Assembly (NCBI GenBank): GCA_036172245.1
Contig: JAYWIR010000005.1
Location: 682,001-746,000, forward strand
DNA from: Raillietiella orientalis
Taxonomy: Eukaryota
DNA: 64,000 nt
Direction: 5' to 3'
The notes beneath the pieces were generated by a model, which did not search any database, was not told the DNA's origin, and saw only the letters and a program-made list of their open reading frames with translations. A program made the translations under genes and the position numbers. Positions 10,001 to 47,800 of this stretch are shown piece after piece; the stretch's first letter is position 1, and each line of letters opens with the position of its first letter.

Positions 10001-11607
10001 ACTACCTTGAAGCGGTGAAAAAATGAAGCGGAGGCAAAAAGGCGGAAGAATGCGGTGAGGGAGGGGAGGGAGTTGGAAGTTTCCTCCCCTTGGAGAGAAC
10101 GTGATCAGTGATCTCCCGGGCTGGTGAGGGAAGGAAAAGAAGGGAGGGTCATCAGGAACGGCTGCGCCTGCCTGCGAGCAGGAAGGCAAGGCGAGAGAGG
10201 GGACGTCCGCCCCACCCCACCCATCTTCACCTTACTTTCCGCGAGCATGGGAGCGCTGGATGGCTTTGCAGGGGATCCTGAAGCCTCCGCCGACCCCAGC
10301 GTCAAGCCTCCCTACTCCTACGTGGCCCTCATCTGCATGGCCATCGAGTCGAGCGCCGACCGCAAGCTCACCCTGTCCGACATCTACGCCTACATCCGGG
10401 ACCGCTTCCCCTACTACGAACGCACGAAGAAGGGCTGGCAGAACTCCATCCGCCACAACCTCAGCCTCAACGAGTGCTTCGTGAAGGTGCCGCGGAGCGG
10501 CGCTGGCGACCGGAAGGGCAACTACTGGACCCTGGACCCCCAGTTCAAGGACATGTTCGAGAACGGCAACTACAAGAGGAGGAGGCGCATGAAGCGCCAC
10601 CACCACCACCGCCACCACCACCCGCACCACCACCACCACTACCACCACCACCATCATCACCGCGCCCACCCGGGCCTCTCCAAGCCGCCGCCGTACGTCG
10701 GCAACCCCGCAGCGGCGGCTGCAGCGGCGGCGGCGGCGGCAGCAGCGGCGGCTGCGGCGGCCTTCCTGCCGAGGACCCTCTTCCCGCCGCCGCCGCCGCC
10801 CCCTCCCGCGCCGCCACCCCCGCACCACCACCACCACCACCACCACCACTACGACAGGCTGCCCTTTGTCGCGCCTCCGGGCGCTCCGCCTGCCTCTTCC
10901 TCGCTTCCCCTTATCCCCCCCTCTTCCCCGTCCCCGTCCCCGTCCTCCTCGCCCTCGTGCTCGGCCGCCGCCGCCGCCACAGCAGCAGCGGCGGCGGCGG
11001 CCGCCTCCGCCGCGTCCTGGGGAGGAATGGGCACGGCGGCGGTGGCCTACGGAACGACGAGCGCTTCGTCCCAGTACTGCGGCTCCATCTCCTACCCCCA
11101 GTTCCCGTCTCAGGTACGAGGAAAGAGGGAACGAGGGAGCGGCCTTCCCTCGACCCTGCGTCCGCCCCAGACCCTCTCCACTCTCTCTTTCCAGCTGCAG
11201 ACCGTGTCTCTGCCCGGAGTCTCCGGCTACAGCCAGATCCCCGCCGCAGGTCTCGGCTCGCGTGAGTACTACGGCCCCGAGAGCAGCACGCCGCTTCCTT
11301 CCGACCCTACGGCTCGTCCCCGGGAAACGCGATCGCGACCTGCGATCCGGTCCGGGCAGCCTCCGGGGGGCGCCGCCGACCGTCGAACTCACCCGACGCG
11401 GAAGGCGGCCGCCCTCCTCCCTACCCTCCGCGTGCTGACCAGTGCACTCGCGTGGTGACCTCCCTCCCGAGTTCCCTTTCCCTTTCAGTCGGCCACGCCC
11501 CCATCTCGACGCCCGGATCCAACTTCGTGCCCAACTTCAGCGCCTACAGGCAGCCGGAATGCAGGCTAGGTCCATCCGGAAGGTACCACCCTTACTACTC
11601 CCAGTAG
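7019..11607 (+). CDS. FOXL2: Forkhead box L2 transcription factor, spliced model of about 367 aa
   Basis: Forkhead domain [14 protein letters not shown]...[57 protein letters not shown] has FoxL2-type features (KKGWQNSIR, [13 protein letters not shown], DMFExGNY.RRRRMKR). Exons 7019-7094 (tentative), 10272-11113, 11195-11261 and 11489-11607 total 1104 nt in frame. An alternative in-frame ATG lies at 10247. Confidence 0.9.
10598..11015 (+). repeat. Coding trinucleotide tracts (poly-His, 18x poly-Ala, poly-Pro, second Ala tract) in FoxL2
   Basis: CAC runs from 10598; GCN x18 at 10709-10762; CCG runs; second Ala run at about 10964-11013. Confidence 0.9.
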
Positions 11608-18489: not shown

Positions 18490-19060
18490 TGTTACATAAG
18501 CGACCCGGCAAGCTGGCATGAGGTGACCGCCCCGGGTAAGCACGAGCTCTGGGACTCGGGTTGCTATTGGAAACGGAGATGGGACAACCGTGTCCTCCTT
18601 GCCCCTGGACACAACTGTGTCCCTCCCATTCCGTTGCTGAGCCAATCTCGTGATCGTAGCCTCCCCTCCCTACTCACTATTACTCCTTCATCTCTGAAGT
18701 AATAGGGAGTAGTGCTGAAGAACCGTCCGCCTCCTAATTAAGGGGGGGGAAGAAGGCGCGAAGCTCCTCTTTGATACCGCCCACACCACACGGGAGGCGT
18801 GTGACTCTTCCAATTATAAAGGGCACCTCGACAGTGGTCCACCCTATGAATCCAGGAAAGGCCCCGTAGGAGTTCCTCTCACTCTTAAGGGGGGACCTTA
18901 AAGGGAAGCACCTCTTACTCCGGAGTCACCTCCTGGTTTGTGGAGGTCTCTCCACCATTTCCTGTCCGAAGAAACCCGGATGGAAACCCGGATCCGCTCT
19001 TGGAATTTCTTCTCCAGAGGGAGCCCCCGGAAAGGATCCGCTCCAGGTCACCCTGCGGTC
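18490..19060 (+). mobile_element. Dispersed repeat, possibly a solo LTR (copy 1)
   Basis: Begins TGTTACA, with CCAAT (18642), GC box (18777) and TATAAA (18815). 18845-19000 is clearly homologous to 38455-38620 (gttcctctcactcttaagggg...ccttaaagggaa...ctggtttgtggagg.ctctccaccatttcctgt). Right end undefined; LTR identity is inferred. Confidence 0.5.
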
Positions 19061-19606
19061 GGTGGAATAGGACGGCTTCCAAGCGAAACCAAGCAACGGG
19101 AACCCCGACGTGAACCAAGCGAGATCCACGCGTCCTCTCTCACACATTCGGGACCTAGTCACGAGTTCAAAAAGTTCAAGACGCAGTGTGGTTCAAGAAT
19201 CTCTTTCCTCAGCATCCTCTTCATGACGTGTCTCCGGCCGTTGCCTGGATACCTCTTGGGCCCATCCCTCCCCAATCACCTTGGGGAGTCCTCTGCGGCC
19301 GTCCCCGCCATGGGGTAATGCAGGGGAGCATCTCCTCTTCCTCCCAGACAAACGTGACCAACGGCAAGGATTCCCCTTCAGGGTTGTTCCCAGGATCCAA
19401 CGGCGCGGTCACGTGATTTGCTGCCCTCGGAAAAGTCCTCGTACTGCCTGCAGATCCTCCGCATCGTTTTCGTTTCCGGTGGCCTCAAGGGAGCGGCGAC
19501 TCCTTCCCCCTTCCATTTCGTGGATGGGCTTCGTCTACCGTCTCTGGTTCCGTCCATTCCTTACCGGGTTTCAAACCTCCATCGAGATGGCGGCGTCTGC
19601 AATGGT

Positions 19607-20377
19607 TTAACACCCGGGTGAGCCGGGGCGTTTATTTTAACAATAAACAAACATGTGTAGGGCCGTCGGCCCTACAACGTCCCGAAAGAGTTCGGAACTT
19701 GCCGAGTCACCGGCACGCAGGCCGGAAAGGTTCCCCTTGGCAGCGGAGCGGTAGAGGGACAAACGAAAATAAAAATAAAAACACTATTTACGAAAAAAAT
19801 GGGACGGTTGGGGGAGGGATCGCATCCTTTTTAGGATGCTGGCAAGTCCCATCGTCCCAGGTGGGGCCATTTGGCTGCCGTCCTCAGGAAGCGAAGGGAT
19901 GATGACGGCGTCCCTGTCTTCCCCTCGCGTACCTACAGGCTGCCACCATCGCACGTAGGCAGCCAAGGGGGATACGGCAGGCGAAAGGGCATCGCGCACG
20001 AAGAGGCGCTTCAACACGTCCCTGGGATTGCCCGTCGGTGCACCAAGGGCTGTTGCGTAGAGCAACCGCAGGGGGCGGAGGGCAACACAGTCAGGTGCAG
20101 GAGCTGGGATTCCCGTTCCCCGCACCTGCAACAGTTGGCGTCCACAGCTCTCCTCGTCCAGTGGGACCGGCGGGCGTTGCTGAGGAGGCCCCGGTGCAAC
20201 AGCGGAAGTGTTGATTCCTGCCACTTCAGGGGAGGAGGGCCCGGTTGTCCTTCAGCGCTGGGGGCTACCCGAGGTCTTCCTGCGCGATTCCCAGCAGCTC
20301 GCCCCAGCGCAATAATCCCTTCGGAGGGGAACTTTGGGTCGCAGCGTCCATGAGCTGATCCGTGATCCAACCACCTA
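19607..20377 (-). mobile_element. Left arm of long inverted repeat; decayed Tx1/L1-like non-LTR retrotransposon 3' end
   Basis: Reverse complement of 29059-29829: paired coordinates all sum to 49436 and three overlapping ORF translations are identical. Encodes a broken C-terminal zinc-knuckle-like segment (LLHRGLLSNARRSHW...NCCRCGERESQLLHL) followed by an AATAAA-bearing tail. The repeat is certain; the clade is inferred. Confidence 0.85.
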
Positions 20378-22590
20378 TCTCTGTGTGCCACCGATCTCAC
20401 ATCAGACCTCTCATTGGGTCAGCTGACTACTGCCCAGGTGCTCCCTAAGATAGGACAGAGTCGCGTCTAGGGAGGTCCTTTCTGCTCAGGCACGAGTGGT
20501 GGGCTGCACGATGACATCCTGCAGCGAGACGCTGTTATAGAAGCTCCTGCAATGATGGTGCGCGGAGGATGACGACGCTCTCTCTCTGTTCCCACGCCTC
20601 ACCGTCTGAGCTCCGTTGGTGCGGCCCTTCCGTTCTCGGACCGGGTCGTGCGCTGCTGCGGATTCGCCGATCCGCACCCCACCGCACGGTCGCTCCCTTT
20701 CACTTCCGGCGGAAAGTTCATCAGGCGGAAGGCTGTTTTGGACTGCGCACCACCAAGACGCACTCTATGGATTGCAGCGCGGTCTCGGTGGTCGGCGTCA
20801 AGAGAAGTGCTCTTTCTATTCGTTGTTTAGAAACCTAAAACAGGCCCGTCTGGAGCTTGGCTACACTCTACCGCGGTGTCGGAGACCTGCGGTGGCCCGC
20901 TTTCAAGTCGCTCGCCGTGCTTTTTTAGATTGCCTTGTTGGCTACCATGCCAATCGCGTTTGATGCCGTCACGCCGCAAGGTTTTCCAAGTTCCTGTCAG
21001 GGGCGACCTTGCACAACTTCCCGGGGAAGGTAGCCGAGCACCTGATCAAAGCCCCAGAGAAAACCACTTATGGGGAGGAAGGAAACCACGAGTGAGGATG
21101 GAGTTTTCCTGCCGGCCGCGCCAGGAGGGAGGCACCGGCTCGAGTGGATTGGCACACGTCGCCATGCTGCAGGACTTAAGGAAGCCCGTCAGGCACGTCG
21201 GCGCTTGGGACGAGTGGCCGTGCGTGTCCCACTGAGTAAAAGAGGGGGCTCAGCTGATCCCCGTGTCGCTGGCTCATCTCGGGAGCATCGGCTGATCGCC
21301 GTGTCGAAGTCTGATCATTGCATGTTCAGCTCATCTCCGTGTGATCCTCCAGGTCGAAGGCTGGCTAGCCTGCGACACTTCTTCGCAGCTCCAACGGTCG
21401 TCACGGGTTTCCGGAGGCTGGTCCGGCAGACCGTCCGTCCGTTCTTGCGCTGCCTCTGACTTTGCCCTTCGTCGACCTTGGCTCCACCGTCGTCGCTCCT
21501 GAAACTCCCCCCCCCCCCCCCACACACACATTCCCAGTTTCCTGAACGATTCTCGCTGACGCATCCTCATCCGGTTCGGCCACGCAGTCTGGTCCGGTTC
21601 TCGTCTTCTCGTATCGCTGCTTCCTGCCCTCGAGGGCGTAGTCTCAGAAAAAGGGTGCTATTCATCCGGTAGCCGAGGGACTCCCGTCCCCGCGGCCCGG
21701 ACGACAAGCCAACGATCAGGGGACGCCCGTAGGAATGAGCATTCAACAGCCAAGGGACGCCCGTCCCAGACATCGCAAATGATGATGATGAGAGGGGACT
21801 CAACATGTCCAACGGCCACGTGTGCTCCCATTCCGGACTGCCGGGACAGTGGAGCAAGATGGACCCAGCTTGGCACAGGAAGTTTTTTTCGAAAGGAGTC
21901 ACGAAAACAGGTTTTTCGATCCAAGGACTTTTGTGCCAGAATTTAGGAGGAAAAAAGAGGATTGATGGGATGGCATGGTCCTCGACAGGGGGAAGAGTGA
22001 CGAAATCGTGTTAGAATTGGCGCAGCACGGAGATGTCCCATTTTGTTCGAAGCACAAGGTCGGTATCGATAAAATCCAGGAGCTACTGAGTGTCCATTCA
22101 TCAAATAATAGCAGACTCCATATAAGACAGAACCATTCTGGCAGATGATCATATCAGAATAGAATGCAAGTTAAGACTTCGGCGGACTTTCATTCAGTTA
22201 TTCTCTACAGCGGCTATACACTCATTTACTACATCCAAGATTCTATCACTTGTAGAGCACAACTTTTTAATGCTACACGATCGAAACTTAAATTTCGTTC
22301 CTGACTCGGCATTTTTCGGTTGTCGAATATGCACTTTATTAAGTGTACAAGTTTGGGACATTGCTTATCTAAATACCGTTTCTAGTGAACAATCAAGTAA
22401 ACCACATGGACAGTGTACTTATTAAGGAATGATAAAACCAATGAAGAAACGATGAATTCACGGACACCTATGTTGAGAACTACTGCGGAAGGTCCTTCAT
22501 TCGGAGACACGTTAATTGGAATTCCACTATGGGCTTAATTTTGTACTTGCATTTCTCAATAATCAAAGGACTTAATGAACAGAGTACAGA

Positions 22591-23370
22591 TTTATTTATG
22601 AAAGGGTTCAAAAAAAGGTTTAAGAATTAGCCACTGTGGCTCTACCCAACCTTCCCATTCTTTCCTTCTGATCGATGATCTGCAACGGTTTCCACATGGT
22701 TGTCAAGGTTGCTTCGGAATCCAGGAACTCCCTCGGGTCGCAGGCACCGTCTGGTGCACGTCCTAATCGATGAGTCCAGTCCTGCTGCAGCGAATGGCGG
22801 AAGAGACCACGACCTTTTTCATTTTATCCGCATCTTCTAGGGATGTCCATCTGCCTCAGGGCTCCATCATTCTTAGGATCCCAAGATCCTAAGACTCCAA
22901 CTATAATGGCATGGACCTTCACTCACTCCTCGGGAGAGTAGGTGCGCAATTTGTTGGTATTTTTCTTCTTTCTTTCGCCTGGCAGTGAGAAATGCTTCCT
23001 CTCCATTCTCAAAGGGACAAGAAACATCCAACACCACCATTCTGCTATCTTTCTGGAGTACAAGGTTTGGTCGCAATGGTGAATCCACACCCGGGAATTG
23101 CTGGTTCGCAGAGATCAGCCTCCATCCAGCTGTTGAAATGGAGGCTCTCTTCATCCTATCCACGATGACATTGTGCTGTTCTTTGTACAGGGGGGAATGC
23201 CTCATGCAGCGGTTTAATATATGAGGCAGAGTTTCATCCCATGTACCACATCATTCTGGTCTTCTTAGCATTCCTCGAATCGGCAAGAGGTTTAACCCTG
23301 CCGGGTGGATAAAACGGAAATCCGCGAAACGCAGCTAGTCGCCACTTGTTAGAAAGAAGCTGCAGACTTG
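22591..23370 (-). mobile_element. Decayed RLE-type non-LTR retrotransposon (Utopia/NeSL-like), 3' fragment
   Basis: Minus strand reads SFFLTSGD*LRFADFRFIHPAGLNLLPIRG / CGTWDETLPHILNRCMRH...QHNVIVDRMKRA...LRPNLVL...VVLDVSCPFENG..AFLTARRKKEEKY / AIIVGVLGSWDPKND: a zinc knuckle plus restriction-like endonuclease, with stops and frameshifts. AATAAA on the minus strand at 22591-22596. Confidence 0.85.
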
Positions 23371-24782
23371 ATGGATACTAACATAAATTCTCCAAACGAG
23401 CCTACCTCCAAGAATAAGAGATCCAGCATATGGGATCAAATATGTATTGCTCGCTGAACATGGCGTGTTTCCATTTTTTGCATTTTGAACTCCCTGAACG
23501 AGATACCTTCTATTACATAAAAGAGATGAAAATCATAGCGTTGAGAAATCCACCCATTGGGAACTAGTAAAAAATTCCAGAGAATGTCCCATTCTTTCAA
23601 TGATGGGTATTTTCGGAGGAGGAAGTTGAGACCGAGATGGACTAATTATGAAAATTTTCGAAGAGCAAACTCATTCCAGACTGAAAGCAAAATGCCTTCT
23701 ACTCGGGAACTAACCTGGTAGTCCTCCCATGTGCAGAAAAACGGTACATAAATTTAATGGAACTTATTCTGCGTCTCAAATACCGCGTCCACTCACACTC
23801 TCACAACTTGATGTTTCCCTGTTCTTGAAGCTCCTGAATGTCTGGATTTTATGTCGAATCTGTCCGCGCTAGTTAAGGGGGACAATAAATTCAACGGAAG
23901 CCAACTGATTTGGACAAATTATGTATAGGTAGGTAGGCAGGTGTGTTCGGCAGGCTCTTTCACCGAGCAGGGCAAACTCGTTCAGTACCGTGCCGCTTAC
24001 CATGGATGACATTTTTATTAGTGTATAAATCGTACGTCAAAAAATGAGTCTCTGTGTTCCAACAGGTTCCCCGTGGTGGTTGAGCGTTCCCCCCCCCCCC
24101 TCCTCTGTAGTGGCGATTCTTTCCGTAAGCCCCAGTAATGGTGGAGGTCAAGCTTGCCACTGCCTGTTTTCGAGCATTTTCCTTTTTTTTTTTGCTGCCA
24201 GAAGAAATGAAAGTTCATCCCGGTAATCCGTTAATTTGTAGAGTAATTCCAGTTTCGGCGTCGCGGCCTGTTCGGTGAAGATCGCTGAAACTGGAGACTC
24301 GTTATTTTCAGAAGTCAGTCATTCCTAATTCACGTTTCTTAACATCTTTCGTCACGTAATTACGTACGTGGTAATTTATTTTGAGGGTGCTGGAAGCGTT
24401 TTCAGTGCCTGCATGTTTTTTGGTTCGTGCCATCATTTTTCCGTTTCTTTCCTTTTTAATGTAAGCCATTTTGATGTTTCTGCAGCTGGATGCATCCAAG
24501 TGATGCTCCGGGCCCAAGATGTGCTCGGCGGGCGTTTTCTCTTCTTCTTCCCTTTCTCGTGTTGTTTTGAATGTGGTTATGTAATGAAGAATTGTCGTAC
24601 CGAGTAAAAATTCAAAATGATGTATGGAGAAATGAGCCAAAGTAAGTCGAGAATCGTGGATGCAAATGAGCATAAAAGTACTGTGGTTGGGGTCGGACCT
24701 GTGTTTGTCGATTGCAGATGGGTTTTCGTTTTGTGAGAAATAATGTCTCATGGAAGTGTTTCGAGGTAGTAGAGAAAGGTGC

Positions 24783-27700
24783 ATGCTTGGCTTACAGTTG
24801 GGGATGTTAATATTCTTATCGGTGTTATTGCCATGCCTTTTTTTACTTTGGTGTTTAGCTGTTCTGGTTGGAGATGATGATGATGATGGTATGCAAATTT
24901 TTTTTTTCTTTTTTTCTTCCTTCATGTGGGATATTTCTACTTAATGAAGGAACATCCTGTAAATTTTTAATGCAGCTAAGATGCATATGGTTAAAGTGAA
25001 ATGCATTTATTCATAAAATAAACAGCTCATTTAATATGTCGTGTTTTTGAAGAATGCAAAATATTTGAACATCCCTTTAGAAATTTTTTCATGGTATCGT
25101 GAACTATCGATTCGGCCTACTGTTGTGATATCCACAGTTCTTAGTCATTCGAATGGCCCAGAACTTATTGATCAACAGAGATTTCTTTGTGGTAAATCAT
25201 TCAGTTAAAACGGAATTTACACCAGCATATGTTGAAAATATGTGGTCTTGTTTCTAGGGCTGTATCAGTGACCAGATTTCTCATTGTTGTGGTTTTAGTT
25301 CACAGTTGTCAGTTCCCAAACAGATGGATGATCTCTGGATTGCTCCCAGTGGTTATTATCCTGAGGGCCCTAAAAAATAAAAGTCTCAGTTGGTCTGGTG
25401 CTGTTGCAGGTACTGATTAAAACGATTCCATTTGAGTAAATATGCTTTCAGCTTATTTCATTGGGTTTTTTATGACTCTAAGCAATTATGCGTTTTTATG
25501 TTGTATGCTATGCTTCTTTCTTACATCCTCTAAGATGACCAGGTTTCGTTCTGCATCAAAGACAAATTTGGATCCCAATCACAAAGAAGGTAATTTTCAA
25601 TTCATTGTCTTTTGTACAATAATTAAAGAGTACAGTGCTTGCTGTTTTCAATGAGCATATTATGAATGAATGTGTAGTAACTTTGCTTCACTGTAAATAG
25701 TAGCTTCATTTGAATCAAACATACTTGACATTCACATCTAAAAAAATACCTATCAGACCATTCAAAGAAAGATTCTAACTGCACTGATAATTTGCCCTCT
25801 TTCTATCCACTTGAAAACATTAATAAATCATCAATTAACATGAGAGTCAAGTCATCACTTCCATTCATGTTTGTTGCTTCATATCCCATCCAGGGAACAC
25901 ATAATGTATAACCTCGGAGATCAGCTTGTAATTTGACTTCTTGTTCACATATTTTCCAGCTTGACCACATGATGTGGTTTAAGCATTTTTTGACCTGGCA
26001 TTTGGCCAGGTTTTTGGGTGCCAAAATTCAGCATTTTGGTAGGCAGGTATTGATGTGGTGTTAATGTGAATTTCTAAGAAATACGCTTAAATAAAGAGCT
26101 TTCGTTCTGTCCATTAGTATGTATTATAGTAGCATGAATACGTTGAAAGACAAACTGAAAGAACATGACTATTGATGAGAGTAAAAACAGAAACATAAAA
26201 ATATGATCAAGTAAGCATTGTGATGTGCTTTGATTTAATAATTAAAACAAAGTAAGTTCTTCTCTTACTCCTCCTCCTCCTTTTATGTTTTTGCTTTATC
26301 TTGTTTAGAATGCATGGCATCTTTTTCATTTAATTAAATACTATCAAAGAAAAATGAACAAATCCAGCATAAACAACAGTAAATAAAAACATATGTAATG
26401 CAGTAACTTTGAATTTGGACTGAATTTACGAGCTTTAACCCTTTGTGAAGATGGTAGTACTTTCCTTGATTGCTTTCTTTAAGTTCTCATGTTCGTGCAA
26501 TGTATTCCATCATTTGTAGGTTGCTGTTTCCTCATATTGTCATCAATCATTAAGAAAATATGTGAAACTTTAATTTTTTTCTTTGAAAAAAATAAAAAAA
26601 AAAGAACGAAAAAGTTGCTTTCCATCTCACTGGGCCCATGCCATTCCGAATCGAAATCACCATCCCAGAATATTCATCTGATCACTGAAGGTTCCATTTT
26701 GTCACCATGTTGATTGAGGTGATGCCTGGTAGCAGACAGTGATGAATGTAATTTCTGTGCAAAGGGTCGATTAGCACAATGTTTATTTTATTTTATTTTT
26801 TTCTTTTTGAACGCCAGATAACTATCTGGCGTTAAAATTTAAGATGTGGTATGAAAAAAGTCTTTGCATTCAGGTGGACAGCGAAACTGGATCCAAGTGA
26901 TTTGTAACGGTGCTATTCCAACCATCTTGTCAATCTTCTATCTTGTGGACTGTGGTTGCGCAGAAAGACCAGTTGATTTCGATAAGAATTTCAAGTGCTC
27001 TTGGTTGAGTCTCTCCATCCTCGGTAAGATCTCACCCTGCAATCCTGTTTTTCATAGCAAACTCTTTCGTGCTGCAGGAGCAATCTGTTGTGCATGTGGA
27101 GACACGTGGGCGTCAGAGCTGGGTTCCGTGATCAAGACTACCTCAACTCGTTTGATCACAAATTTTAAACAAGTGCCCAGAGGTAAATGAAATGTTTTCA
27201 GGATAAATAATATTCACGAATTTATAAACATTTTGTGAGCCTACCTGTGTGTGTCTTTCCCCCACGACCACTCGAAACCATTTTGCAGCCCAGATTTTCA
27301 GAATATCTTGAAAGCCTCGATGAATTTTGCGCCACGGAAACCATTTGTAGGGACTGTAGTTTTTAGTGGAGATTTTATGTAGGGATTGTGGCTTCCTTGT
27401 GTTACCCCTTCCCGATTTCTTGCTCCTGATCGGGTGCCCTTCCAGGTTTACCGCTTCCTCGTGACCTTTATTTCGCGTCTCCCATGGTCTTGAGTTTTCG
27501 ACATAACGTTCGTTCGTTCGTAATCGGAAAGGTTCACCCGCGTCAATTCCGCATTGTGGGGTCGAATTGCCCGAGGCTGGAGTGGCCTGTTTCGTTTGGC
27601 ATTCTGTTGCCCCGCGCGGCGTGTGGGTGCCACCTGTCACGAACTTGGTCGCCCGGTCATCGGGAGAGTGCGTTGACAGGCGGCGCCGTGGCGCGTCCGG

Positions 27701-28458
27701 GAATTCGCGTTCTCCCTCCGAACGGCGCGGTATCTCGCGCCCGGGTCACGCGGCCTGGGTCGCCCGTCACCGCGATGAGGGAAGACTTAAGCCCCGGTTC
27801 ACGCCCCCAGCAGGAGCACACCGATCGAGCGCCATCGTGTGTGCTCGTGCTCTTCCGTGAAGGCCTTGACGCTTCCTGGAAAGTCTGATCTCGACGTGGT
27901 TTCTCGTTTTGTTTTTGAGATTGCACGATTTCGTTTGGGAAAATAAGACTGCGGATCTGATATCTTAAAAAAAAAAAAATAAAAAATAAATAAACTGCAT
28001 TTCAATTTAGGCCCTAAATGATTTGATTTTAGGTACTAATGGGGGCATCACTTTAGGCGGCATTATTTTTAGTTTTCTTGGAGGTGCATCCGTAGCTTAC
28101 GTGTACTGCTTTGCCATCAGCTACTTTGGAAGATACGTGGTTCGCAACAGCATTCGCCAGCTACCACTGATTTCGTATGGAGCACTCTGCGGAGGGCTTG
28201 GAAGCATGATCGATTCCTTTCTCGGGGCAACGATCCAGTACTCAGGTTCACTCACACATCTGAAATGCACCGCATGCCCCCGCTTCTTTGTTTTCAGGTC
28301 TGTTGAAGAACAGGATCGTAGAGAAGGGAGGCCCTGGCGTCAAACACATCTGCGGCTATCAGATCTGCGACAACAACACGATAAACTTCATCTCGTCCCT
28401 GATTGTCGCCTTGACCATGCCGGTCATCGCCTCGTATATTTGGAAAATCAATGCGTAA
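24783..28458 (+). CDS. TMEM19: Transmembrane protein 19 (DUF92 family), about 327 aa
   Basis: Exons 24783-24888, 25299-25409, 25452-25589, 26874-27023, 27078-27182, 28033-28245 and 28298-28458 (984 nt, all GT-AG). Motifs KNKSLSWSGA, KEGGQRNWIQVICNG, GDTWASELG, VPRGTNGGIT, GSMIDSFLGATIQYSG and DNNTINFISS. The start could instead be the in-frame ATG at 24750. Confidence 0.93.
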
Positions 28459-29058
28459 AGAAAGCTTGGCCCGTGCGTTTGGTGGTGGTGGGGGCTCCCT
28501 AGTTCCTCAAGCGCGCTCCCTTCGTCGAGGGAGCACCCCAGAACCCCGCCCCCGACATGCGAGAATTTGCTTCCTTCACCCCCGTTCCCCGTGGGAGTCA
28601 CGCAGCAAGCACCGGAGCGCGCTGTTTCAGGGACACCGGACTCTTTTCAAAATTGTGGATCCATGTTTCGAAGTGTAGCGCCCGCACGTTATTTGAGAAG
28701 ATAACACAGCCCCCAGTCTGCAGCATGTGGACGTTTTATTATGATTACTATGATTTTGTTGTTATGGTCGTCGTCGTGCGTGGATCCGCAGATCCTATTT
28801 GTTGGCGGTTCCCCATGAGAGATCTTGTTCATTAAGAATCATTGCCGTGATTACAAAATTTCCTCCAGGAGCTGCTTGAGTTCTTTGTTTGGCTTTTCCG
28901 AGGGGAACCTTTTGACGTGGGTGTTTTAGGAACCGACTCTTGGCGACGGCGACGTGACATGCAACGCAGCCGTGCGTCGTGGCAAAGCGTTGTTGCTTCT
29001 GCTTGCACGCGTTTCTTTCAGTCCCTACCTGCCGCCGTCCACCACCAAGGACTTTTAC

Positions 29059-29829
29059 TAGGTGGTTGGACCACGAGTCAGCTCACGGACGCTGCGACCC
29101 AAAGTTCCCCTCCGAAGGGATTATTGCGCTGGGGCGAGCTGCTGGGAATCGCGCAGGAAGACCTCGGGTAGCCCCCAGCGCTGAAGGACAACCGGGCCCT
29201 CCTCCCCTGAAGTGGCAGGAATCAACACTTCCGCTGTTGCACCGGGGCCTCCTCAGCAACGCCCGCCGGTCCCACTGGACGAGGAGAGCTGTGGACGCCA
29301 ACTGTTGCAGGTGCGGGGAACGGGAATCCCAGCTCCTGCACCTGACTGTGTTGCCCTCCGCCCCCTGCGGTTGCTCTACGCAACAGCCCTTGGTGCACCG
29401 ACGGGCAATCCCAGGGACGTGTTGAAGCGCCTCTTCGTGCGCGATGCCCTTTCGCCTGCCGTATCCCCCTTGGCTGCCTACGTGCGATGGTGGCAGCCTG
29501 TAGGTACGCGAGGGGAAGACAGGGACGCCGTCATCATCCCTTCGCTTCCTGAGGACGGCAGCCAAATGGCCCCACCTGGGACGATGGGACTTGCCAGCAT
29601 CCTAAAAAGGATGCGATCCCTCCCCCAACCGTCCCATTTTTTTCGTAAATAGTGTTTTTATTTTTATTTTCGTTTGTCCCTCTACCGCTCCGCTGCCAAG
29701 GGGAACCTTTCCGGCCTGCGTGCCGGTGACTCGGCAAGTTCCGAACTCTTTCGGGACGTTGTAGGGCCGACGGCCCTACACATGTTTGTTTATTGTTAAA
29801 ATAAACGCCCCGGCTCACCCGGGTGTTAA
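29059..29829 (+). mobile_element. Right arm of long inverted repeat; decayed Tx1/L1-like 3' end
   Basis: Inverted copy of 19607-20377; ends AATAAA-cgccccggctcacccgggtg-TTAA. Confidence 0.85.
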
Positions 29830-32800
29830 GCCACGGACCGGTACCGTCCCGAACGTCCCCTCTCGTGGTACGATTTCATCCTGGAACACGACCAGTGTGT
29901 TTCTCTTGATCAACGGCGGTGGCAAATCTGCGAGGCACATCGGCGCCGAAGACTCCGAAGACCGAACAAATCGTGCGAGGCTCCGATTGGTGGTGAAGTG
30001 CAACACGGCGCATTCTGTCTGAGGTGACAGAATTCTGTCTAAGTAAATATGTGCTTTCACAGCAATGTTGCCTTTTACCCACTGGTTCTTTTTTTTTAAA
30101 AAAAAAAAAACAAAAAAAAAAGGTCAAGTAATGTTATGTAAACGAGGTAAGAAAAATCACAGGGATGCAGTTTATGACAGAGAGGCAATTTCAGATGACG
30201 CGAGGCGTGAAGGGAACACCCGCAGCTTTCGTTACCGTACTTTCGACAGCAATGCACAGCAGAGGCACGCTGATTATGCCAAAAACACGCAGAAGACGCG
30301 TGCATGTGTGTTGTGCGTAACCCTCGAAGGTAACGGTCACTCGTTAACTCGGTGTTGTTTTCAGGTCGTATCGACCTTCGTATGGTAAGAACAGTGCAAG
30401 ACATGCAGCCAAGGAATTGACTCAAGATGGGCTCGGTTGCATTGGCATGCAGGAAGCCTTCACACGGGAAATTTTCGAGATGTTCGTTTTTGCATGCCAT
30501 GGAGGATCTGCATCGTTTCGTCTCGTGTCGTTCCTCTTATCTGGTTGAGAATACACGAATGCGGTGAACCCACAGGTCACACCTCAATTCTCAAATCGCC
30601 GACACTAGGAGAGGGGAGGTTTGGGTGTGCTTATGCATCCCAGGTGAATGGACCAGAGTTCGCATCCCAGACCAAGGACGTTGCATCGTGGTGTCGAAGT
30701 GCGATGGGGGAATGTAACTGTCAGGTTACGCCACTTCACGGTTCTTGGAAAACGAAAAGGCACACACAGCAAGGAGAAAAAAACAAAAGAAATGGAAACA
30801 CTCGAGCATTCAAATGTAAATATCTGATTTTCTAAAAAAATAAATAAATATATAACCGGAAAGACAGAGACGTCGACGAAATAATTCGTTCCGCGTCTCT
30901 GCGTAATCACACATTCCGCATCCTTTAGAAACGCCCTTCTTGCTGTAAAGGGGTGCTGTAAGGAGATCCCACCGTGATCCTTGACCTCCTCCCAACTTTA
31001 TTTAAGGGGATCGAATCCCCGGATCAAGCTAGCGGAAGATGAGACTCCTGATTCTGTGACTCGGAGGTCAGAGAGCCGCACTTTTCGAGCGCACATCCCC
31101 GCATGCCCAACGTGGGGGTGCAGAACCACCGGATGTACTTGAGGATGCTCCTTGCTCGCAGCATGGTACTGCATAGCTCTCTCTCTCTTTGATGCTGGAG
31201 CGTTACTTTGGTATGTGAATCCTCCTCCGGTGGAATCCCATCGCCTGCGGAAGCGACCCTTTTCCGTTCGATCCCTCTAGTCGCACACGGACACAGCGAG
31301 GAGCGAGCGCGCGGCGGGAACACGAAGCAGATGATAACAGAAGCTTCTTGAAGGCGCACGCGCGCAAAACACGGGCGAAGGTGTGATCCAGAAATGCGGA
31401 CCTCCTGTGTGCAGATCCAGCATCGCGCCAACGAACGACTTTCCCGCTGCAGTTCCACGGAAGATTTTCCTCGCATCGAAAGGCAGTGCCGCGGCTCGTG
31501 CCTTCCACCCAATCACGTACCTTCGCTGCACTTTCGGCACCAACTGGGTTTCTGCCCCCCTCCCCCCCCCGGTGACTCCCCGGCGCATCGATTAAAAGCG
31601 GATTCGCCCAGAGTTGGGTTGCCGATGACCAACGCGGGAGTCTCGCCACCACAGCACCCGAGTCGAGATCAGCCGGAGCTGTCCCGGAAACCTCATGTTG
31701 CCTGGTTGCGGCGGGTTCGCCAGCTGGGGTCCAGTCGAACGAAGCGTTTCAAGCACCGAATCCGAAACCGCACAGCGATCGATCCTTTAGGCGCTGGAGC
31801 AAAAGGAGTACGAGAGACGCCCTCGCCCACCCAACAGCCTCGATCTACCGCGAGAAGACACGTGAAAGGCTAAGACGAAGAGCAAGGAGCGACCGGGAAA
31901 GTGGGGGCTCCCTGCTTGGAGGACTTGAACTCTTTTCCCTCTCATGGGTCCCGGATGGGGGAAACTCGAACCTTTCGGAGGAGCGGGTTTATTCTAATAA
32001 ACCCTGCCGAAATGCACGTGTCGTCCCTTTCGGACGCCGAAGAGCTTTCAGGATGAACCAGAGCAGATATGCGAACATCTATGTCGCAACATCCGGGATC
32101 TTGGCATACAGCCATGAATTTAGTGCCTACCAAACTCTTTGAGCCGAAATCCTCCAACGAGACTGAGTGCGGATCGACACGCCGTCAACACCCTCGACGA
32201 TGTTGTTAAACGACAGAAGTTCCCGCGAGTTCCGAAAAGACGGGTGCAATTAGCGTGGAACTCTGAAGCGAAACTTCATCTCGAGAGGGAAACAAAGGCG
32301 GGGATGATCGGCATGTGTCAAGTGGACGAAAGTTTCTACGCCTACAACTTACAACAGGAGACGCAAAGATTGATTTCCAAGATTTCGAACGGCGCCACCT
32401 CGTACTTCGGAACGGAAGCTCCCGTCACAAGACATCACGGAGACCAACCGAAAGGTCGGATGATTCCTTTATTTGTGGGTGGTCAGGCCGATGCCGTGTC
32501 TGCGCATTCAAACTGTCTCCCAATCCTCAACTACCAAGGAACGCACACAAAGAGGAAGCCGGGCAGGGAGCAGGCGTCAGCAGGTCCACTTCAAAACTGA
32601 TCAGAGAGCATACTCCAAATCAGTTGCTCCAGCACGAGGAAAAAACTCAGCAGGAGAACCATCTGACGGCAATTTTCCGAAGAAGGAAAGAAAAAGTCCG
32701 CGAGCACCAAAGGCGCGTAGTGTAAACCGGAAGCGTGCCAGTGACCTCGTGCTACGGGGAAAGCCTTCATAGGGTGGAAAGGAGGCGGCCATTGACATTT

Positions 32801-34049: not shown

Positions 34050-34868
34050 ATGCGGGAAGTGACGAACGCTGCGATCCCAAGTGTCCCACTCCAAAGGTCC
34101 TTCTACTCTGGGGAGAGCTGCTTGACGTCCCTCCGGAGGAGGGGAAGCGGCCCTCAGTGTGCTGGAACAGTGGCGCCCTCCCCCTCAAGTGACGGGAGTT
34201 GGCATTGCAGGTGGTGCATGGGGGAATCCCATGCAAAGCGCGCCTTCGACGCTGGACACGGGGGGAGGGAGCGTGGACGCTCAGGGTGGGGCAGGTGCGG
34301 GAAGAAGGAGACCCTCCCGCGCCTGCTGTTGGACTGTGTTGACCGACCCCTTTGGGATTGCCTCGAGACGACCTAGGATCCCCGGTGGGCAACCCCAGGG
34401 ACATTTTCAAACGCCTCTTCGTGAGCGGTGCTGCACTGCCGCCATCTGCGTGCGTCCTTCGCAGTCTTCTGCCGTCCTCGCGGAATCATGGCGTCCTGGA
34501 GCGCCAGACGAAGAGGCCGAAATGGCAGGGATGCCATCCACCGGGCACGGAGCTTCCTGAAGACCGCCTCGAGGTGGCCCCACCTGGGCGAGACACGCAA
34601 GGAACTTGCCAGCATCCAGAAAACAGGATGCAGGGGACGCCGGACAGCGTACCGTGATCCCTTCCTCGCTCCCCCCCCCCTTACCCTGTTTTGTGGATGT
34701 TTTTTTTTTTGGGGGGGGGGAGATGGTGGTGTTTTCCCTTCTCCCCCCTCCCACAGGCTGCCGAAGCGGACTTCGCCTTGGGCAGGTTCATCACGCGTGG
34801 TAGCACCTACGGTCCTACGACACTGTTTTTATTAGGTCATGTAAAAAACGTCCCGGCATAACCGGGTG
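34050..34868 (+). mobile_element. Third, diverged copy of the same Tx1/L1-like 3' end family
   Basis: RCGKKETLPRLLLDC zinc-knuckle remnant; GNPRDIFKRLFV versus GNPRDVLKRLFV in the arms; shared ggccccacctggg and acttgccagcatcc; similar terminus cgtcccggcataaccgggtg. Left boundary approximate. Confidence 0.75.
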
Positions 34869-35734
34869 ATGATCACACATGCGAGAGGGGGAAAAAAAAC
34901 TCCCAGTTCTTTGTACTGCGGACTTCCCGCCCTCTTGGCTTGAGAGGAGGCGAATGAGGGCTTCGAAGAGAGCGAGCTCTTTTTTCCCTCCCCGAGACCT
35001 CAAGGAGCACGAAGACTAGAAGAACCGCACCGGAAGGTTCTCGGTACCGCGCCTGACTCGACCAGCACGACGACGAGGCATCAGCGTTGGTGTTGGGAAC
35101 CAAGCTGTCAGCAGCGCCTCGACGAACGCCTGCGGCTCTTCCTGTTCCCGAACCTAATGGGGAGCGAAACGGGGAGGTGGAACCAACCGATGGAACCGGT
35201 GGAACCGCCGTCGCGTGTGAAACACGCGACGGCGGCGCGGGCGTCAGGACTCCATGGCCAAGTCCTCGCAAGCCGCAAGATCCGACTCTGCTCGTGGCAC
35301 GCACGCAAGAGGGAGGGGCTGGAAAGAGTTGGCCTCTCGGGCCAGCCCTGCCTTCGCAGGTCCAACCACGCAGTTCGTTCTTCTTGTTTACCAACCCGGA
35401 AAAGAACGGCGGGCGAATTCCTCAAAGCGTTCGCTCACATTCCATGGAAGAAGCAAACGCGCGGAGGTACTTTACGGGTCGACCCGTCCAACGACCTCAG
35501 GCCCACAATCGAAAGGTCGAACCACAGTCTTCTCAACCCGCTGGAAACAACATGGCGCCCTCGACGTTAATTGCAGACACGACGGGCTCGTCCAAGCACA
35601 GATGCACGCAACCTGTGTTTACGAGAGAGCAAGGAAAACACCAACGGCGCGAACCGTTCGGATCTTCCAAGTGGGCCGTTCCGCTCGGTGTGCAAAAAAA
35701 AGAAAAATGACGAAGATGCTGGACAAAATCCATG

Positions 35735-35889: not shown

Positions 35890-38800
35890 TTACTGAAGCA
35901 CCAAGCCTACCTGAAAAACACAAGGGGAGAGAAAGGGGAAAAAAAAAACAACTCATTAGAAACGAGCAAGAAATCAGACACTTCGCAAGCGCTATCAGTG
36001 CAACCGACGATGTAATACTAGCCGTATCCTACTACACGATTAAGTAACAAATGGTCTACTAGAAATTGCGATGCACGCAGCATGGGGGGCGCAGCTGATC
36101 GCTGATCATCACGTGAAGAACACTGACGGATCCAGTTATGAGAGCAACACCAATTAGGAATGTTCGGGCAAATCGTCAACTGCAACTGCGCTTGGAAAAC
36201 ACGAGAACGCCTGCACGCGGAGGGAAAACTTTCGGGCGAAGGCGCGCGCACTGGGGCGTGCAGCGAAGACATATTTTTCCTTTTCGGTCCTCAAGGAGTG
36301 CTGAAGAACCGCTCGTCTCCCTAGAGGGGGCTCACGAAACTCTCCAGCGCTGCTCCACGCCGCCCGAGGGTGCGCGTGTCGCTCTTCAGGTTGGGAAGCA
36401 CGGCCGCCCCACGAATCCAGGAAGGGCTCGGGAGTCCGTTTCTCCCACGCCTGGGGAGGGATCCTCGAAGGGAACACCTCCGCCCTGGTCGTCTCCGAAG
36501 GGAACAAGCTCCTTCCTCATTCCCTCCGGAGGAACCTCCCGGTTTGTGGGGGGTCGCTCCTGGTTTCCGTTTCTGAAGAGAAACCCGAAGCGGAGCTTCC
36601 CGATTTTCCCGGAAGGGCGCTCCCCGAAGGGAGCAGCGCGCTTCTTGCACTCTCGGCAAGCCCTCCAGGGGAGAGAGAACGGTTGGGTATCAACCATTTT
36701 TTCGGAAAAAAAAAAAAAAAAAAGTGTGTGTGTGTGGAGAAATACGGGGCGCCGTTGCCTTTGAAGAATTCGGTTTGGGGCTGTAAACGCACGAACCAAA
36801 ACGGGGGGGGGGGGGACAGCGCTTTCCCGTCACGACAGGAACGTTCTTTGCGCATGCGGACAAAGGCAATGCGATGGCTCATCCTGGATGGACCACTTTG
36901 ATCTACACGCAGAGGGGCGGCGCGCACACGGACGATGGGCGCCTTGCACGTGCAGCAGCGACCACCGCTTGCTTTGTCCTTCTGTCGATCGTCCGACCGC
37001 CGACCATTGAAATTCCTCTTCCAGCACAGCTGACACGACGGGAACCTGCGGGGACGACAGACACGACTCGGTTTCGGATGATGGAACAGACGCAGCTTTC
37101 CGTGTTGCAGATGGCACGAAGCGGAACGCAAGTCGGGCAGGGCGAGCAAAGTGGGCTGGAACGCCTCTGGGAAAGTTCGTCGCGCGTGCGAACAGCGCAA
37201 CTGTGGCACGCGAGGACGGGATCGGGAACAGGGATCGACGGACGCAACGACGCGCACAAGGTCTGCATGCGCCGGAAGCATGCACGGCACGGGCCGACAG
37301 TCGGTGGCTCTGGCTGCAAGAGAAAACAAAAGCATCGCAGGAAAGGGCGGCCCGCCTCAACTCGAGCGGGGCCATAGGCTGGAAAAAAATGCAACTCTGT
37401 GATCTCCATGATTCCGTCGCCGACAAGCAGCGGCTCCCGCACGGGGCAGATTCCCGTCCCGAGCTTCCCAGCACTTTCGAAGCAGGGAGCGTCTCCTCGA
37501 GGGGAGACCACGCCAACGTGAAGGCACGCGCCAGCGGCTGCGTTCCCAGTGGGAACCACAGCAGCCCAACATCGCGGCCAATGGTACGCCTCTTTCTCAC
37601 CCAGCAGGAAGCACATCGACTGGGGTACAGCTGGCCCACAAGCAAGGGCGTTCCTTGGGGTCACGCCCGATCGCCATTGGCACGAAGACTCCGGAAAAGT
37701 CCGAGCCAGTCTGAGATCCCCTTAAGACCACTCCTCTTGGATTTCGACGCTGACGACGGAGCCGCGTTTCGCCTTCCGTCAACAGCCTGAGCAGGAGCAA
37801 CGTGAAGTTCTTCCGCGCTGTTGCCGTAAGGCCGCGCCTTGGATCCGCTTGTGGGGAACAGGAAACAGGGAGTGCGTCTTGGCCACCTTTCGAATCTGCG
37901 GCCGTGGGTTCCGAGATTGGAGCCGTCTTGAGTTCGCAGTGAGCTGGCCAAGTCGCACACGTATTTTTTTTGTTTTTTGTTTTTTTTTTAAAAAAGGGGA
38001 CGCTTGCTGGCAAAGATGCACAATAAATTGGATTGTGGTGAAGCTGGCAGTCCTGTCAATGAAGAAGGCAAGGAGGCATCGAGAGAAACGTGGGCCAGCG
38101 GGATGCAAACTGTTTCCTCGGACGTTTTCGAGCTTCGGGTCATCCGAAGAGCGCGGCCGGTGTGCACGCGCGTCATCCCCAGAAAAAACCCCACCAGCAA
38201 CGAGGACAGATGTAAAAGTGGACTCCCACCCGAGCCCCCGAGGTACTCGCGCGACGCCTGACCCTACCCGCGGGTTTGAAGATCTTCTCCCAGCATCCCA
38301 ACGTGATGTTTCCCCTCTTTTTTTTTTTCTTTGGTTCGCTGGGCACGCGAGAGCTGTTCGCCCAGGCGCTCGCGAAGCTCTTCGGCGCTGTTCCACGCCA
38401 CCCAGGGCGCGCGCGTCACTCTCCAAGTTTGAGGATAACCCGGGAGGGAACCAATCCATGAATCCAAGAAGGCATCCGGATGGGGAAGGAGTCCGTTCCT
38501 CTCACTCTTAAGGGGAAACCTTAAAGGGAACCACCTCTTCCTTCGGAGGGACCTGCTGGTTTGTGGAGGCCTCTCCACCATTTCCTGTGTCCGAAGAGAA
38601 CCACGAAAAAATCGGCTCCTTGCTCCTCCTCCTTTGAAAAGGATTCCGAAGGGGCGCTTCCCGATTTTCCCTGAAGGGCGCTCTCCGAAGGGAACAGTGC
38701 GCTTCTTGACAATCTGGAGAGGCGACCATCGATAGCGGTATCGACCAGCTCCATGGTAACCGATAGAGGGGAGTCCCGAAGGGCTCCGTGATGCCCTGGA

Positions 38801-44800: not shown

Positions 44801-47800
44801 TGGGGTAAAAACCAATGCTTAAATTCTTCTTCCGTAAACACAGGAACCAGATAGAAATTCTCCAAGTACTGAAAGCACAAGCCGCAACTGGACTCCATGA
44901 AAGATTTAGATCACAATAAACAGATGAAAATGACTACAATTTTGTTTTTTACATTTTTTTTTTTTTTTTTTTCGAGGGAAGCAAAGGGAACGATATCAAG
45001 AGATTCATCAGGAGACAACGAGCAGTAACAGGCAAAAGCGCAGAGAAGTGCTTGTCATCTGATGATTGGCAATCTCTCTCGTCTTGGTACGCGTTTCTCG
45101 GTACGTTTGGGTGGCTCGGTGTCAAAATTCAGTGACAGGAGGTGGGGGGGGGGGGGAGAGAGAAGAAAAAATGCCACCACGTCTTCGAAACGGCTCGAAA
45201 CTACTTTGAAAAATGGGGAGGGCAAATGACACGGGGACTCTCCAGCACAGTTGGCAGAAACGACTGGCAAGGCCAATGTGCACTTTCCCATTACTCGTAC
45301 GCTAAAAGCACACATGGCACACGCGGTTGCAAAAAAGCAAGCAAACAACGGGATGTGTGCATCTCCACTCGTGTGGACCGCGAGTGTTTGGATCTTCAAA
45401 TGAAAACGAGAGCTCGGTGGCAATCTCCACGGGACGAAAGGCGAGGGAGGAAGCGGCTGGATTCTCCAGACCGGAGGGGGAGCTTCGAGATTGAAACTGT
45501 GCTGGGAAAACCGGGGAGATCACTCTTTGCGGACATCACGGCCGTCTCGTCGCCTTTCTCACGCTACGCGATTTCCGTTCACTTGCGTTGGGGGGAAGGG
45601 GGGAGGGGTGCAACGGAACGGACCGCTTGCTTTCCAAACCATCTCGGAGGTCTCTCGTGCTTTGCTTTCGACTAAACGACGGCAAATCTGCTTTAAAACA
45701 ACTGGCAAAAACTTTCCTGGGGGCAAACTCGTGAGCAGCGCAAGGCATGCATGAGAAAACCGTACGCCTGGATCGTACATTGAAAAATCCATACCAAGTG
45801 GCATGAAGACAACGGGAAAGCAAGGGGACGGACTTTACTACTGAACTGTGGGATCTGTTTCTTTTGGGGGATTTCCGTTTCCTCGACCGTCTCCTGGATT
45901 CCGAGGACGCGAAGCTCGCGGTTCCTTTTCATGGGTTTTTGGGATTACAACAAATTCTTACCAACCAGAGGTCGGTTACGTGTTCACCAAGTGGCAAGGA
46001 GGGAACCTGTACTCACTTTTGACAGCAAGGCGTGGGCTTGCGGAACATCTGCCAAGCACAGCGGCCGGAGACCAGGCTGCCTGGGGTGATCTGGTAATCT
46101 GTTCAACTTCAATGTTCTTTGCAATGTCATATTGCGTCCGAGATGCGAAAATTTGACATCAATCAATTTCTTAGGGTTCAAGGAACGATGCCAATACCTG
46201 AAATTGGGTTCTGGCTGTTGGGACTTTCCGGCTGGAAGCCGAGACACGAATACCTGCAAGTGGCTACTGGTTTCGGCAATATCACCCCCGCTGTGTACAC
46301 GGCTTGGAAGATGCCAGTGAGGTTTACTCTGCGTGTGATTTCACGTATGAGGACGGGAGCGACTCGCTTGCTCCTCAACTTTTTGTACACACACAGAAAA
46401 TTTATTTCCACCAGTTTTCGAATACTTTGAAAACAAAAAAAAAAAGAAACACACACACATTAATGAATACACAAAATCTTAACAACTACATGCAGTTTCA
46501 GTTTTTTTCCGAGAAAATCAAAAATCTTACTCGGAATAGATTCGGATACAAGCAGGCACCCCAGAGATAAAACCAACCAACTTTCGGGACTTCGTCACGC
46601 GCACACCACAATGCCAATCTGGAACCCAACCAGGAGGCTGCAGAGCCCTATCCACATGAACGAGAAACAGCTCAATGATTTCACAGCATCCTTACTTACC
46701 AACGAAGAAAGTCGGCCGAATAATCAAAGCGAAACATGTTGTCATCATCTTCAACGTAATTTTCAAACAACAGCTGGTATACCTCTTGCAACTACGATTA
46801 TAACAAAGCTCAATGCAGGATGCTCAATTTCTCTTTAGTACTTGAAGATGGATGCACAATCAACTCAGAATCACCAACAGCCACAGTTCATACAACTTGG
46901 TGAACAGGAAGTGACACCGCAACACTACAGAGCTAAGAGAAATCCCCAACGAATGAGTACGCCGTGCATCCCAAACGGATTTGCAGGAGCTTCGGGAGAA
47001 ATACCACCCTCACTGAACTTGCCCTCATATGCAGGCAAAAAGCACAGAAACCTATCATCATAAACCTACATCATGAAATGCACCAACAATTGAGGATCCC
47101 TAATGAGTGTCCGGCGAATCAAGACTTCAACCAAAGGCAGATGTAGCGATACAAACCACCATGCCCATCAAGCAATTTAATGGATTACAATGTACCTTTT
47201 CCCTTCAATGTCACAATACCTGCACCGGGAAAGTAGCTACAGTGCAATAATCAATTGTCTACAATTAATACACCCTCAACAAATGCTTTTCCATTTTCCC
47301 CTTTTCCATGTTCCTTCCAATGATTTTCCTCTTACAAATAGCAAGGTCAAGCAACTCAACAGCTTATAAAACGAAAGGATTCACATTTCAAGGACATGGC
47401 AAAGCATTTATTTATGGTTACTTTGGTGAAACGAATCAAGCATCAAAAGCTTGCTTGTGGCATTTCACCAGAGTCCTCTGATCTAGGCTGCTCCTGATCC
47501 ACCCTTTCATATAATCCCATGTATTTATAAATAAAATGTCTACCATCACAAAATATTTATGTGTGCATGCACAAGCAAAGAAAAATCCTTGTGCACAAAG
47601 AATGCATTTCTCTTAATGATGAGTGTACTTAATTCTATATGTCCTTGGAAAAAAGAACTCCTTTCTTGCATTTGTTTTTTTGTTTCTTTTTCTTTTACGA
47701 ACTTTTTCGGCGAATTTCCAAACAAAATTTCCTGGATTTTTTTTCCACTGACTATTTATCACATCAATCCAAAGATTCGAGTTGAAAGGATATTGTACGA

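Follow-up and report, generated by a model that had tools for sequence, protein, structure and literature searches.

Gene conversion between neighbouring retrotransposons, both Alu elements and long terminal repeat (LTR) elements, is already known. For neighbouring Alu elements, the reported range is about 10 kb, with a rate that drops with distance and divergence (PMC6598467, PMC8230782), and Alu conversions in gorilla have a mean tract of 118 bp (10.1101/241356). Human gene duplicates, according to one study, undergo non-allelic gene conversion (NAGC) at about ten times the mutation rate, in 250-bp tracts, with a small average effect on divergence and with a GC bias of 67% for strong alleles (10.1101/135152). 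Sex-chromosome palindromes have near-identical inverted arms around a spacer, between which arm-to-arm conversion occurs within the chromosome (PMC3403216, PMC8327919). Here, inverted arms are described from a stretch of 64,000 nt of Raillietiella orientalis (assembly GCA_036172245.1, contig JAYWIR010000005.1, positions 682,001-746,000; hereafter the window, whose positions serve as coordinates below), in which the gene TMEM19 lies between two inverted copies of a long interspersed nuclear element (LINE). The two arms are very probably separate old LINE insertions that were later homogenised by NAGC, and the best reading of the locus is as one case of proximity-limited, mostly non-crossover conversion, rather than as a property peculiar to this locus. 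The whole data basis is one genome assembly.

Identical inverted arms enclose TMEM19

The arms, the gene between them and a third relative of the arms are as follows (UTR, untranslated region; ORF, open reading frame).

19607-20542, minus strand: left LINE copy, 5'-truncated ORF2 3' end plus 3' UTR, 936 bp, 3' end outward (family homology)
19607-20349, minus strand: portion of the left copy without any difference from the right one, 743/743 (exact comparison)
25259-28458, plus strand: TMEM19 (DUF92), six exons, one open frame to the stop, between the arms (ORF joining, Pfam)
29059-29829, plus strand: right LINE copy, 5'-truncated, 771 bp, 3' end outward (family homology)
29059-29086, plus strand: inner edge, unconverted, 4 mismatches in 28 bp relative to 20350-20377 (exact comparison)
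34062-34872, plus strand: third, more distant relative, about 67% identical, not homogenised, 4.2 kb from the right arm

Exact comparison of 19607-20349 with the reverse complement of 29087-29829 showed identity at all 743 positions, with no indels. Past the identical block, four mismatches occur in the next 28 bp (offsets 744, 753, 754, and 759), and homology between the arms stops at offset 771 (20377 / 29059). The left copy retains family homology for a further 165 bp inward, to 20542, which the right copy lacks. The distance between the arms is 8.7 kb, and both outer ends read TTAA and then CACCCGGGTGAGCC. A preliminary description of this DNA had claimed identical inverted arms, an identity that ends before the homology does, and TTAA at both outer ends, and each of these observations was reproduced on exact alignment. 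It had also claimed a third, more diverged family member that lacks the TTAA, and the copy at 34062-34872 agrees with this, as its 3' end reads TGATGA. Because this third copy is only 4.2 kb away and yet has not been homogenised, nearness alone is insufficient. Additionally, two near-palindromes are present in the LINE 3' UTR (19656-19680 and 19821-19845, plus the mirror positions in the right arm), and possibly form RNA hairpins.

The LINE family and its 3' terminus

Copies of the arms' family were collected in two sets. The first used the right arm as query against the 210-Mb genome of the same species and comprises the best 40 of 3,635 candidates, among which all matches except the two arms were 70-77% identical. 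The second used another copy as query and comprises 30 loci, 7 already known and 23 new; 11 rows were left out. Together these give 63 copies, with 3' ends set by alignment, and the closest copy other than the arms themselves is 82% identical to them. The 3' end is fixed and the 5' ends are scattered, and on sequence grounds the arms' family is a 5'-truncated LINE family. Longer copies match zf-RVT (E 7e-6 and 0.003) and RVT_1 (E 0.002 and 0.007), and every one of these matches falls short of its curated cut-off; Pfam matches were obtained in 4 of 10 fragments of longer copies, and the two arm ORFs scanned against Pfam gave none. The earlier assignment of the arms to a LINE 3' end is upheld by these domains, which place the arms at the 3' end of ORF2 and the 3' UTR. 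The family is putatively L1/Tx1-like, a label drawn from domain order and not from a tree. Like L1/Tx1-type LINEs, it has a reverse transcriptase (RT) domain followed by zf-RVT, 5' truncation, target-site duplications (TSDs) of 10-16 bp, and a target preference; unlike them, it has no poly(A) tail, and no endonuclease or ORF1 was seen in the truncated copies examined.

The family tree has a star-like shape and a median of 0.11 for its end branches, on a bootstrap that is not fully settled; this indicates that the burst is old. The distance of copies from the family root is about 0.12 substitutions per site, and no young subfamily was found on the tree of 63 copies. For the TSD test, each copy's own flanks were scored against mismatched flanks of other copies, and a score of at least 8 was reached by 27 of the 63 copies, compared with 74 of 3,868 mismatched controls. 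Directly 3' of the family end, RCC is present in 41/63 copies, a preference that accounts for the 3-of-4 match immediately beyond the arms. Two targets recur in the 3' flanks. The first (12/63: L009, L019, L020, L021, L026, L028, L101, L108, L135, L138, L141, and L143) resembles, by eye, the antisense strand of ORF2 in a sister LINE, and the second is found in 6/63 copies (L004, L014, L015, L133, L142, and L146).

The family terminus bears directly on the TTAA at the arm ends. Elements of the piggyBac superfamily duplicate a TTAA target and carry terminal inverted repeats (TIRs), and the preliminary description had accordingly read the TTAA as a possible piggyBac target duplication and offered a non-autonomous, gene-carrying element with retro-derived TIRs as one option. 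In a piggyBac-type version of this element, the LINE tails would act as TIRs and TMEM19 would be the cargo. In its favour are the TTAA of the two outer ends and the presence of piggyBac-like transposase relics in the genome (74 matches). However, the likeness to the superfamily is limited to the outer ends, and the TTAA belongs to the LINE: TTAA or ATAA is the aligned 3' terminus of the family, solo copies included, with ATAA as the last four bases in 32/63 copies, TTAA in 8/63, and TAA at the end of 44/63. The TTAA is thus a variant of the LINE family terminus. A piggyBac transposase with matching termini was also sought, and the 18-nt arm end was found, within 4 mismatches, at none of 20 piggyBac-like loci examined from the 74 matches; their visible ends are a different motif. 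Similarly, in none of the 63 LINE copies does the terminus recur upstream, in inverted form, within the same locus. The inner ends of the arms are unequal, each arm has a LINE-type TSD of its own (see below), and the cargo has not been copied, since extra copies of TMEM19 were looked for and DUF92 matches in the genome search came from a single locus, the TMEM19 of the window. On these grounds a piggyBac-type element was rejected, and the probability left to it is practically negligible.

Two insertions, each with its own flanks

The flanks of the arms contain the following repeats, none of which is assigned a strand.

19593-19606: left TSD, outer half (11/14 to 20543-20556; 0/62 other copies' 3' flanks equal this)
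20543-20556: left TSD, inner half, abutting the 5' truncation point
29045-29058: right probable TSD, inner half (10/14 to 29831-29844; 2/62 other flanks equal this)
29831-29844: right probable TSD, outer half

The arms are two separate old insertions, each with its own 5' truncation and its own TSD. The fit of the TSD halves is 0.79 (left) and 0.71 (right) when each arm is scored with its own flanks, compared with 0.40 and 0.40 when the flanks are swapped. The TSD flanks have decayed by 20-30% around bodies that have 0 differences in 743, and the identity was therefore imposed long after insertion. Relative to the family majority, the arms have 80 substitutions and 14 indel events in common, and none is private in the core. 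The suggestion that an already decayed element was copied at the DNA level holds in this form: separate old insertions with decayed TSDs became identical later.

The same flanks bear on orientation. Identical inverted arms of 743 bp at this spacing are a plausible substrate for crossovers, and TMEM19 could lie in a recurrently inverting cassette that is flipped by arm crossovers, with homogenisation as a by-product. A crossover between the arms would swap the inner TSD halves. These are unswapped, and thus the assembled TMEM19 is in the ancestral orientation, after zero or an even number of flips; an even number would leave no trace in the TSDs. Of the invertible cassette homogenised by conversion that had been proposed, the conversion part stands, whereas the inversion part has no support in this assembly, because the TSD halves still flank the same arm and there is no net inversion at TMEM19.

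Homogenised pairs across the genome

Pairings at least 90% identical in the core were termed twins. There are 19 such pairings in 13 groups, which include 29 of the 63 family copies, occur on at least 11 contigs, and all have 100/100 tree support. Among same-contig pairings at most 160 kb apart, core identity is 90% or more in 18/20 and 96.7% or more in 17/20, compared with 1/60 same-contig pairings more than 200 kb apart (92.4% at 323 kb) and 0/1,873 between-contig pairings (maximum 87.7%) at the 90% level. The distance rule was taken from the first 40 copies (11/12 close pairings), and 7/8 newly added close pairings were then also at least 90% identical. Among the twins themselves, the relation of identity to distance was not significant (rho -0.44, p 0.06, n=19). 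Neighbours at 66-74% identity, which belong to more distant subfamilies, are unconverted even less than 1 kb apart.

Twin cores have a median identity of 98.4% (median difference 1.6%), although their stems on the tree measure 0.06-0.14 substitutions per site; identity is exactly 100% in three pairs, and most twins differ by 0.3-3%. The identity covers most of the shared length (0.75-1.5 kb), with whole shared lengths 97-100% identical at up to 157 kb, and falls at the edges. For instance, the last 60 alignment columns are at most 85% identical in 15/19 twin pairings, where the non-twin mean is 73%. Such mosaic edges lie at the 3' edge in these 15 pairings, and at the 5' edge only in the TMEM19 arm pair. 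Conversion tracts start and stop inside the homology, so edges are converted least. Three features of conversion are thus present: derived changes common to independent copies, a converted core with diverged edges, and dependence on distance and similarity. From this pattern, we infer that conversion acts between twins.

The taper is also informative about local retrotransposition, in which the right arm would have arisen from the left as fresh complementary DNA (cDNA). As this would predict, the right arm covers a 5'-truncated part of the left one, to which it is identical at the 3' end. However, reverse transcription starts at the 3' end, and it is there that twins differ most (15/19 pairings), which argues that they are not fresh retro-copies. 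A fresh insertion would additionally show a perfect TSD and not one of 10/14, and the tree is without a young subfamily, so that hardly any weight can be given to this explanation.

Twins occur in both orientations, with 10 inverted and 9 direct pairings, and homogenisation limited to inverted pairs was rejected for this reason. An own TSD is retained by one or both members in 7/10 inverted pairings, and a clear swap was seen in none of the ten; L017/L132, L023/L030, and L125/L127 gave no clear verdict. The inverting cassette would gain from the weak swap scores of L017/L132 (6 and 5), but direct pairs cannot toggle and yet are homogenised as often (9/19), and inversion is thus a very unlikely cause of the identity of the arms.

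Haplotigs or segmental duplication were rejected as a source of the LINE twins, as the flanks are unrelated in the aligned pairs; the exception is a host repeat at 60-70% beside both L130 and L133. An assembly or polishing artefact, in which similar repeats are collapsed to one consensus, had also been listed as an option. Collapse could account for the last few identical bases in the three pairs with exact identity, and the last few differences between the arms could have been lost in this way. Nevertheless, copies that are 80% identical are not collapsed, an artefact of this kind provides no cause for the 160-kb range or for the taper, and twins are local and mostly imperfect. They are also GC-shifted (see below), which is not expected of an artefact, and this option is highly improbable.

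A check independent of the LINE family was made on 664 kb from three contigs (two were picked blind and the third surrounds the window), using matches of at least 150 bases. At least 90% identity was found in 10/90 within-region matches, one of which is the TMEM19 arm pair, and in 0/109 between-region matches. Some of the twins in this sample are members of dispersed families, in which the remaining copies have an identity of about 70%. Further twins of 0.8-1.3 kb, 98.6-99.4% identical, are at C5 605069-606409 / 617989-619330, C1 3042173-3042951 / 3047567-3048345, and C1 3063363-3064503 / 3145730-3146870; those beginning at C5 605069-606409 and C1 3042173-3042951 have no third copy in the 664-kb sample. 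Additionally, five pairs of piggyBac-like relics, picked for matching scores, have cores 98-100% identical at distances of 44 kb to 1.46 Mb, with ends diverged in 4/5 and not in one. Two of the piggyBac-like twins lie beyond 160 kb, namely L119/L120 (C4, 1.46 Mb) and L117/L118 (C10, 252 kb).

GC content of twins

Substitutions were polarised on the family-majority sequence. The GC-to-AT rate was 0.080 in the 13 twin groups (one member each) compared with 0.114 in 34 unpaired copies, and the AT-to-GC rate was 0.071 compared with 0.062 (Mann-Whitney p 2e-4 for the GC shift). This shift fits heteroduplex repair that favours G and C. One study reportedly finds no GC bias in Drosophila or primates.

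Weighing gene conversion against local duplication

Recent local duplication at the DNA level would make one arm a templated insertion, copied into a break, with no older second insertion. It would account for arms that are identical to the 3' terminus, for a right-arm TSD that matches at only 10/14 positions, and for those pairs in the 664-kb sample that have no third copy. L104 and L107, an inverted pair 52 kb apart on C27, have a common 5' junction that extends about 16 bp past the element and takes in L107's 14-bp TSD half, and the donor's TSD is thus present at both 5' junctions. This common TSD implies that copying can pass the end of homology, and local duplication therefore stays alive for some pairs. 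At TMEM19, however, the identity ends 28 bp before the homology on one side and exactly at the LINE terminus on the other, and TSD-like flanks are present at the own ends of both arms. Most twin edges are at the family background, which needs two pre-existing diverged copies. For the arms, local duplication is accordingly unlikely, and NAGC between separate insertions is preferred.

Several observations nonetheless weigh against homogenisation by conversion. The right TSD is weak, since 2/62 control flanks fit equally well, and a TSD is undetectable in about half of the family copies. L104/L107 represent at least one event of copying beyond homology or of DNA-level duplication, and several within-region pairs, for which the sample contained no further copy, may simply have arisen by local duplication. 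Homogenisation is absent from two close pairings (35 kb, 81.6%; 142 kb, 84.2%), and the TMEM19 arms are identical through the 3' terminus, unlike 15/19 twin pairings. Twins join the best-40 list together, so 29/63 and 18/20 overstate prevalence, and pairings inside trios are not independent. Lastly, the GC test is confounded, as twin flanks are GC-richer (57.5 compared with 54.2%, p 0.014), and of two analyses of the edge control one was flat, whereas the other gave a higher AT-to-GC rate in twins (0.099 compared with 0.075).

Proposed course of events

Two members of one old L1/Tx1-like burst inserted tail-out, one on either side of TMEM19, by target-primed retrotransposition, as the separate 5' truncations and TSDs show. 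Under gene conversion, a break in one copy would later have been mended in cis with the neighbouring sister copy as template. Crossovers would mostly have been avoided, which would keep flanks and orientation. Same-subfamily copies within about 160 kb would in this way evolve in concert in any orientation, and distant or diverged copies would not. Conversion that has been continuous since insertion is the simpler reading; long tracts that were converted late, between copies of 80% identity, are a less economical alternative.

What confines the process is a more tentative matter. Unusually permissive homologous repair confined to cis, with nearly all sufficiently similar repeats in one chromatin domain locked in lasting, crossover-free concerted evolution, is conceivable although doubtful, and confinement by chromatin domains is offered as a hypothesis only. 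In mammalian cells, loop extrusion confines the RAD51 search (PMC12701822). If the domain reading were true, twins of dead repeats would be a fossil map of the range of the germline homology search, about 160-300 kb and occasionally more than 1 Mb, and the unconverted 35-kb and 142-kb pairings would straddle domain boundaries.

Other contents of the window

The six exons of TMEM19 join with GT-AG introns in a single frame, and two of them match DUF92; the first exon and start codon were not pinned. The earlier placement of TMEM19 between the arms is correct, and the gene is a bystander there. A relic of a second dispersed repeat is also located between the arms:

22650-23300, minus strand: relic of a second dispersed repeat (other copies 64-84% identical; no twin)

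The ORF of this relic gave no Pfam match. By eye, it contains a CCHC-like stretch and a PD..D-like motif, which we take to be as in LINEs of the restriction-like endonuclease (RLE) type. The label 'Utopia' that had been given to it was left unconfirmed; no Rfam match at gathering level, U2 included, was found in the window, where a short U2 fragment could escape. NMT, placed nearby in the preliminary description, was not located in 59 of 89 ORFs scanned from 45-59 kb and a spot-check of 30-45 kb.

A forkhead gene at 10112-11458 (+; Pfam E 4e-38), labelled FoxL2 in the preliminary description, has long poly-His and poly-Ala runs. EF-hand exons are found at 55404-55670 and 61073-62158 (+), in a gene spread over 55-61 kb. 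GC content contrasts at 22000-28000 and 47000-53000, where gene-body introns have 32-44% GC compared with 55-70% around them. A short repeat pair (18872-18976 / 38495-38602), 19.6 kb apart and 89% identical, stands above the other repeat matches of the window and is possibly a partly converted pair.

Comparison with known systems

The TMEM19 locus itself is no new mobile element. Here, a dead family whose copies lie about 12% from the root has given twins 97-100% identical that mimic fresh activity, and the identity of copies is therefore no clock in this genome. Hundreds of neutral pairs, with TSDs that mark origin and orientation, make it possible to measure how far ectopic repair reaches, how large its share of crossovers is, and how strongly it is biased towards GC; these measures can be obtained from one assembly and compared with chromosome-conformation (Hi-C) domains. 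In the literature, covered in part and without most subscription journals, no report of pairwise homogenisation of old transposons at such a range in an arthropod was found.

As in Alu conversion, independently inserted copies have been made alike, with a dependence on distance and divergence. Range, completeness, and prevalence exceed the figures given for Alu elements in those sources: unlike there, shared lengths of 0.75-1.5 kb are 97-100% identical at up to 157 kb, a range over ten times larger, and there are a 92% pair at 323 kb and one piggyBac-like pair at 1.46 Mb. Human-duplicate NAGC (10.1101/135152) likewise has a GC bias and a dependence on similarity, with diverged copies escaping; in contrast to human duplicates, conversion here dominates the divergence of the sampled neighbours. 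Compared with sex-chromosome palindromes, the locus has the same near-identical inverted arms, a spacer between them, and intrachromosomal conversion. Unlike those palindromes, its arms are short dead repeats from separate insertions, with the gene in the spacer and not in the arms, and direct pairs behave alike, on at least 11 contigs.

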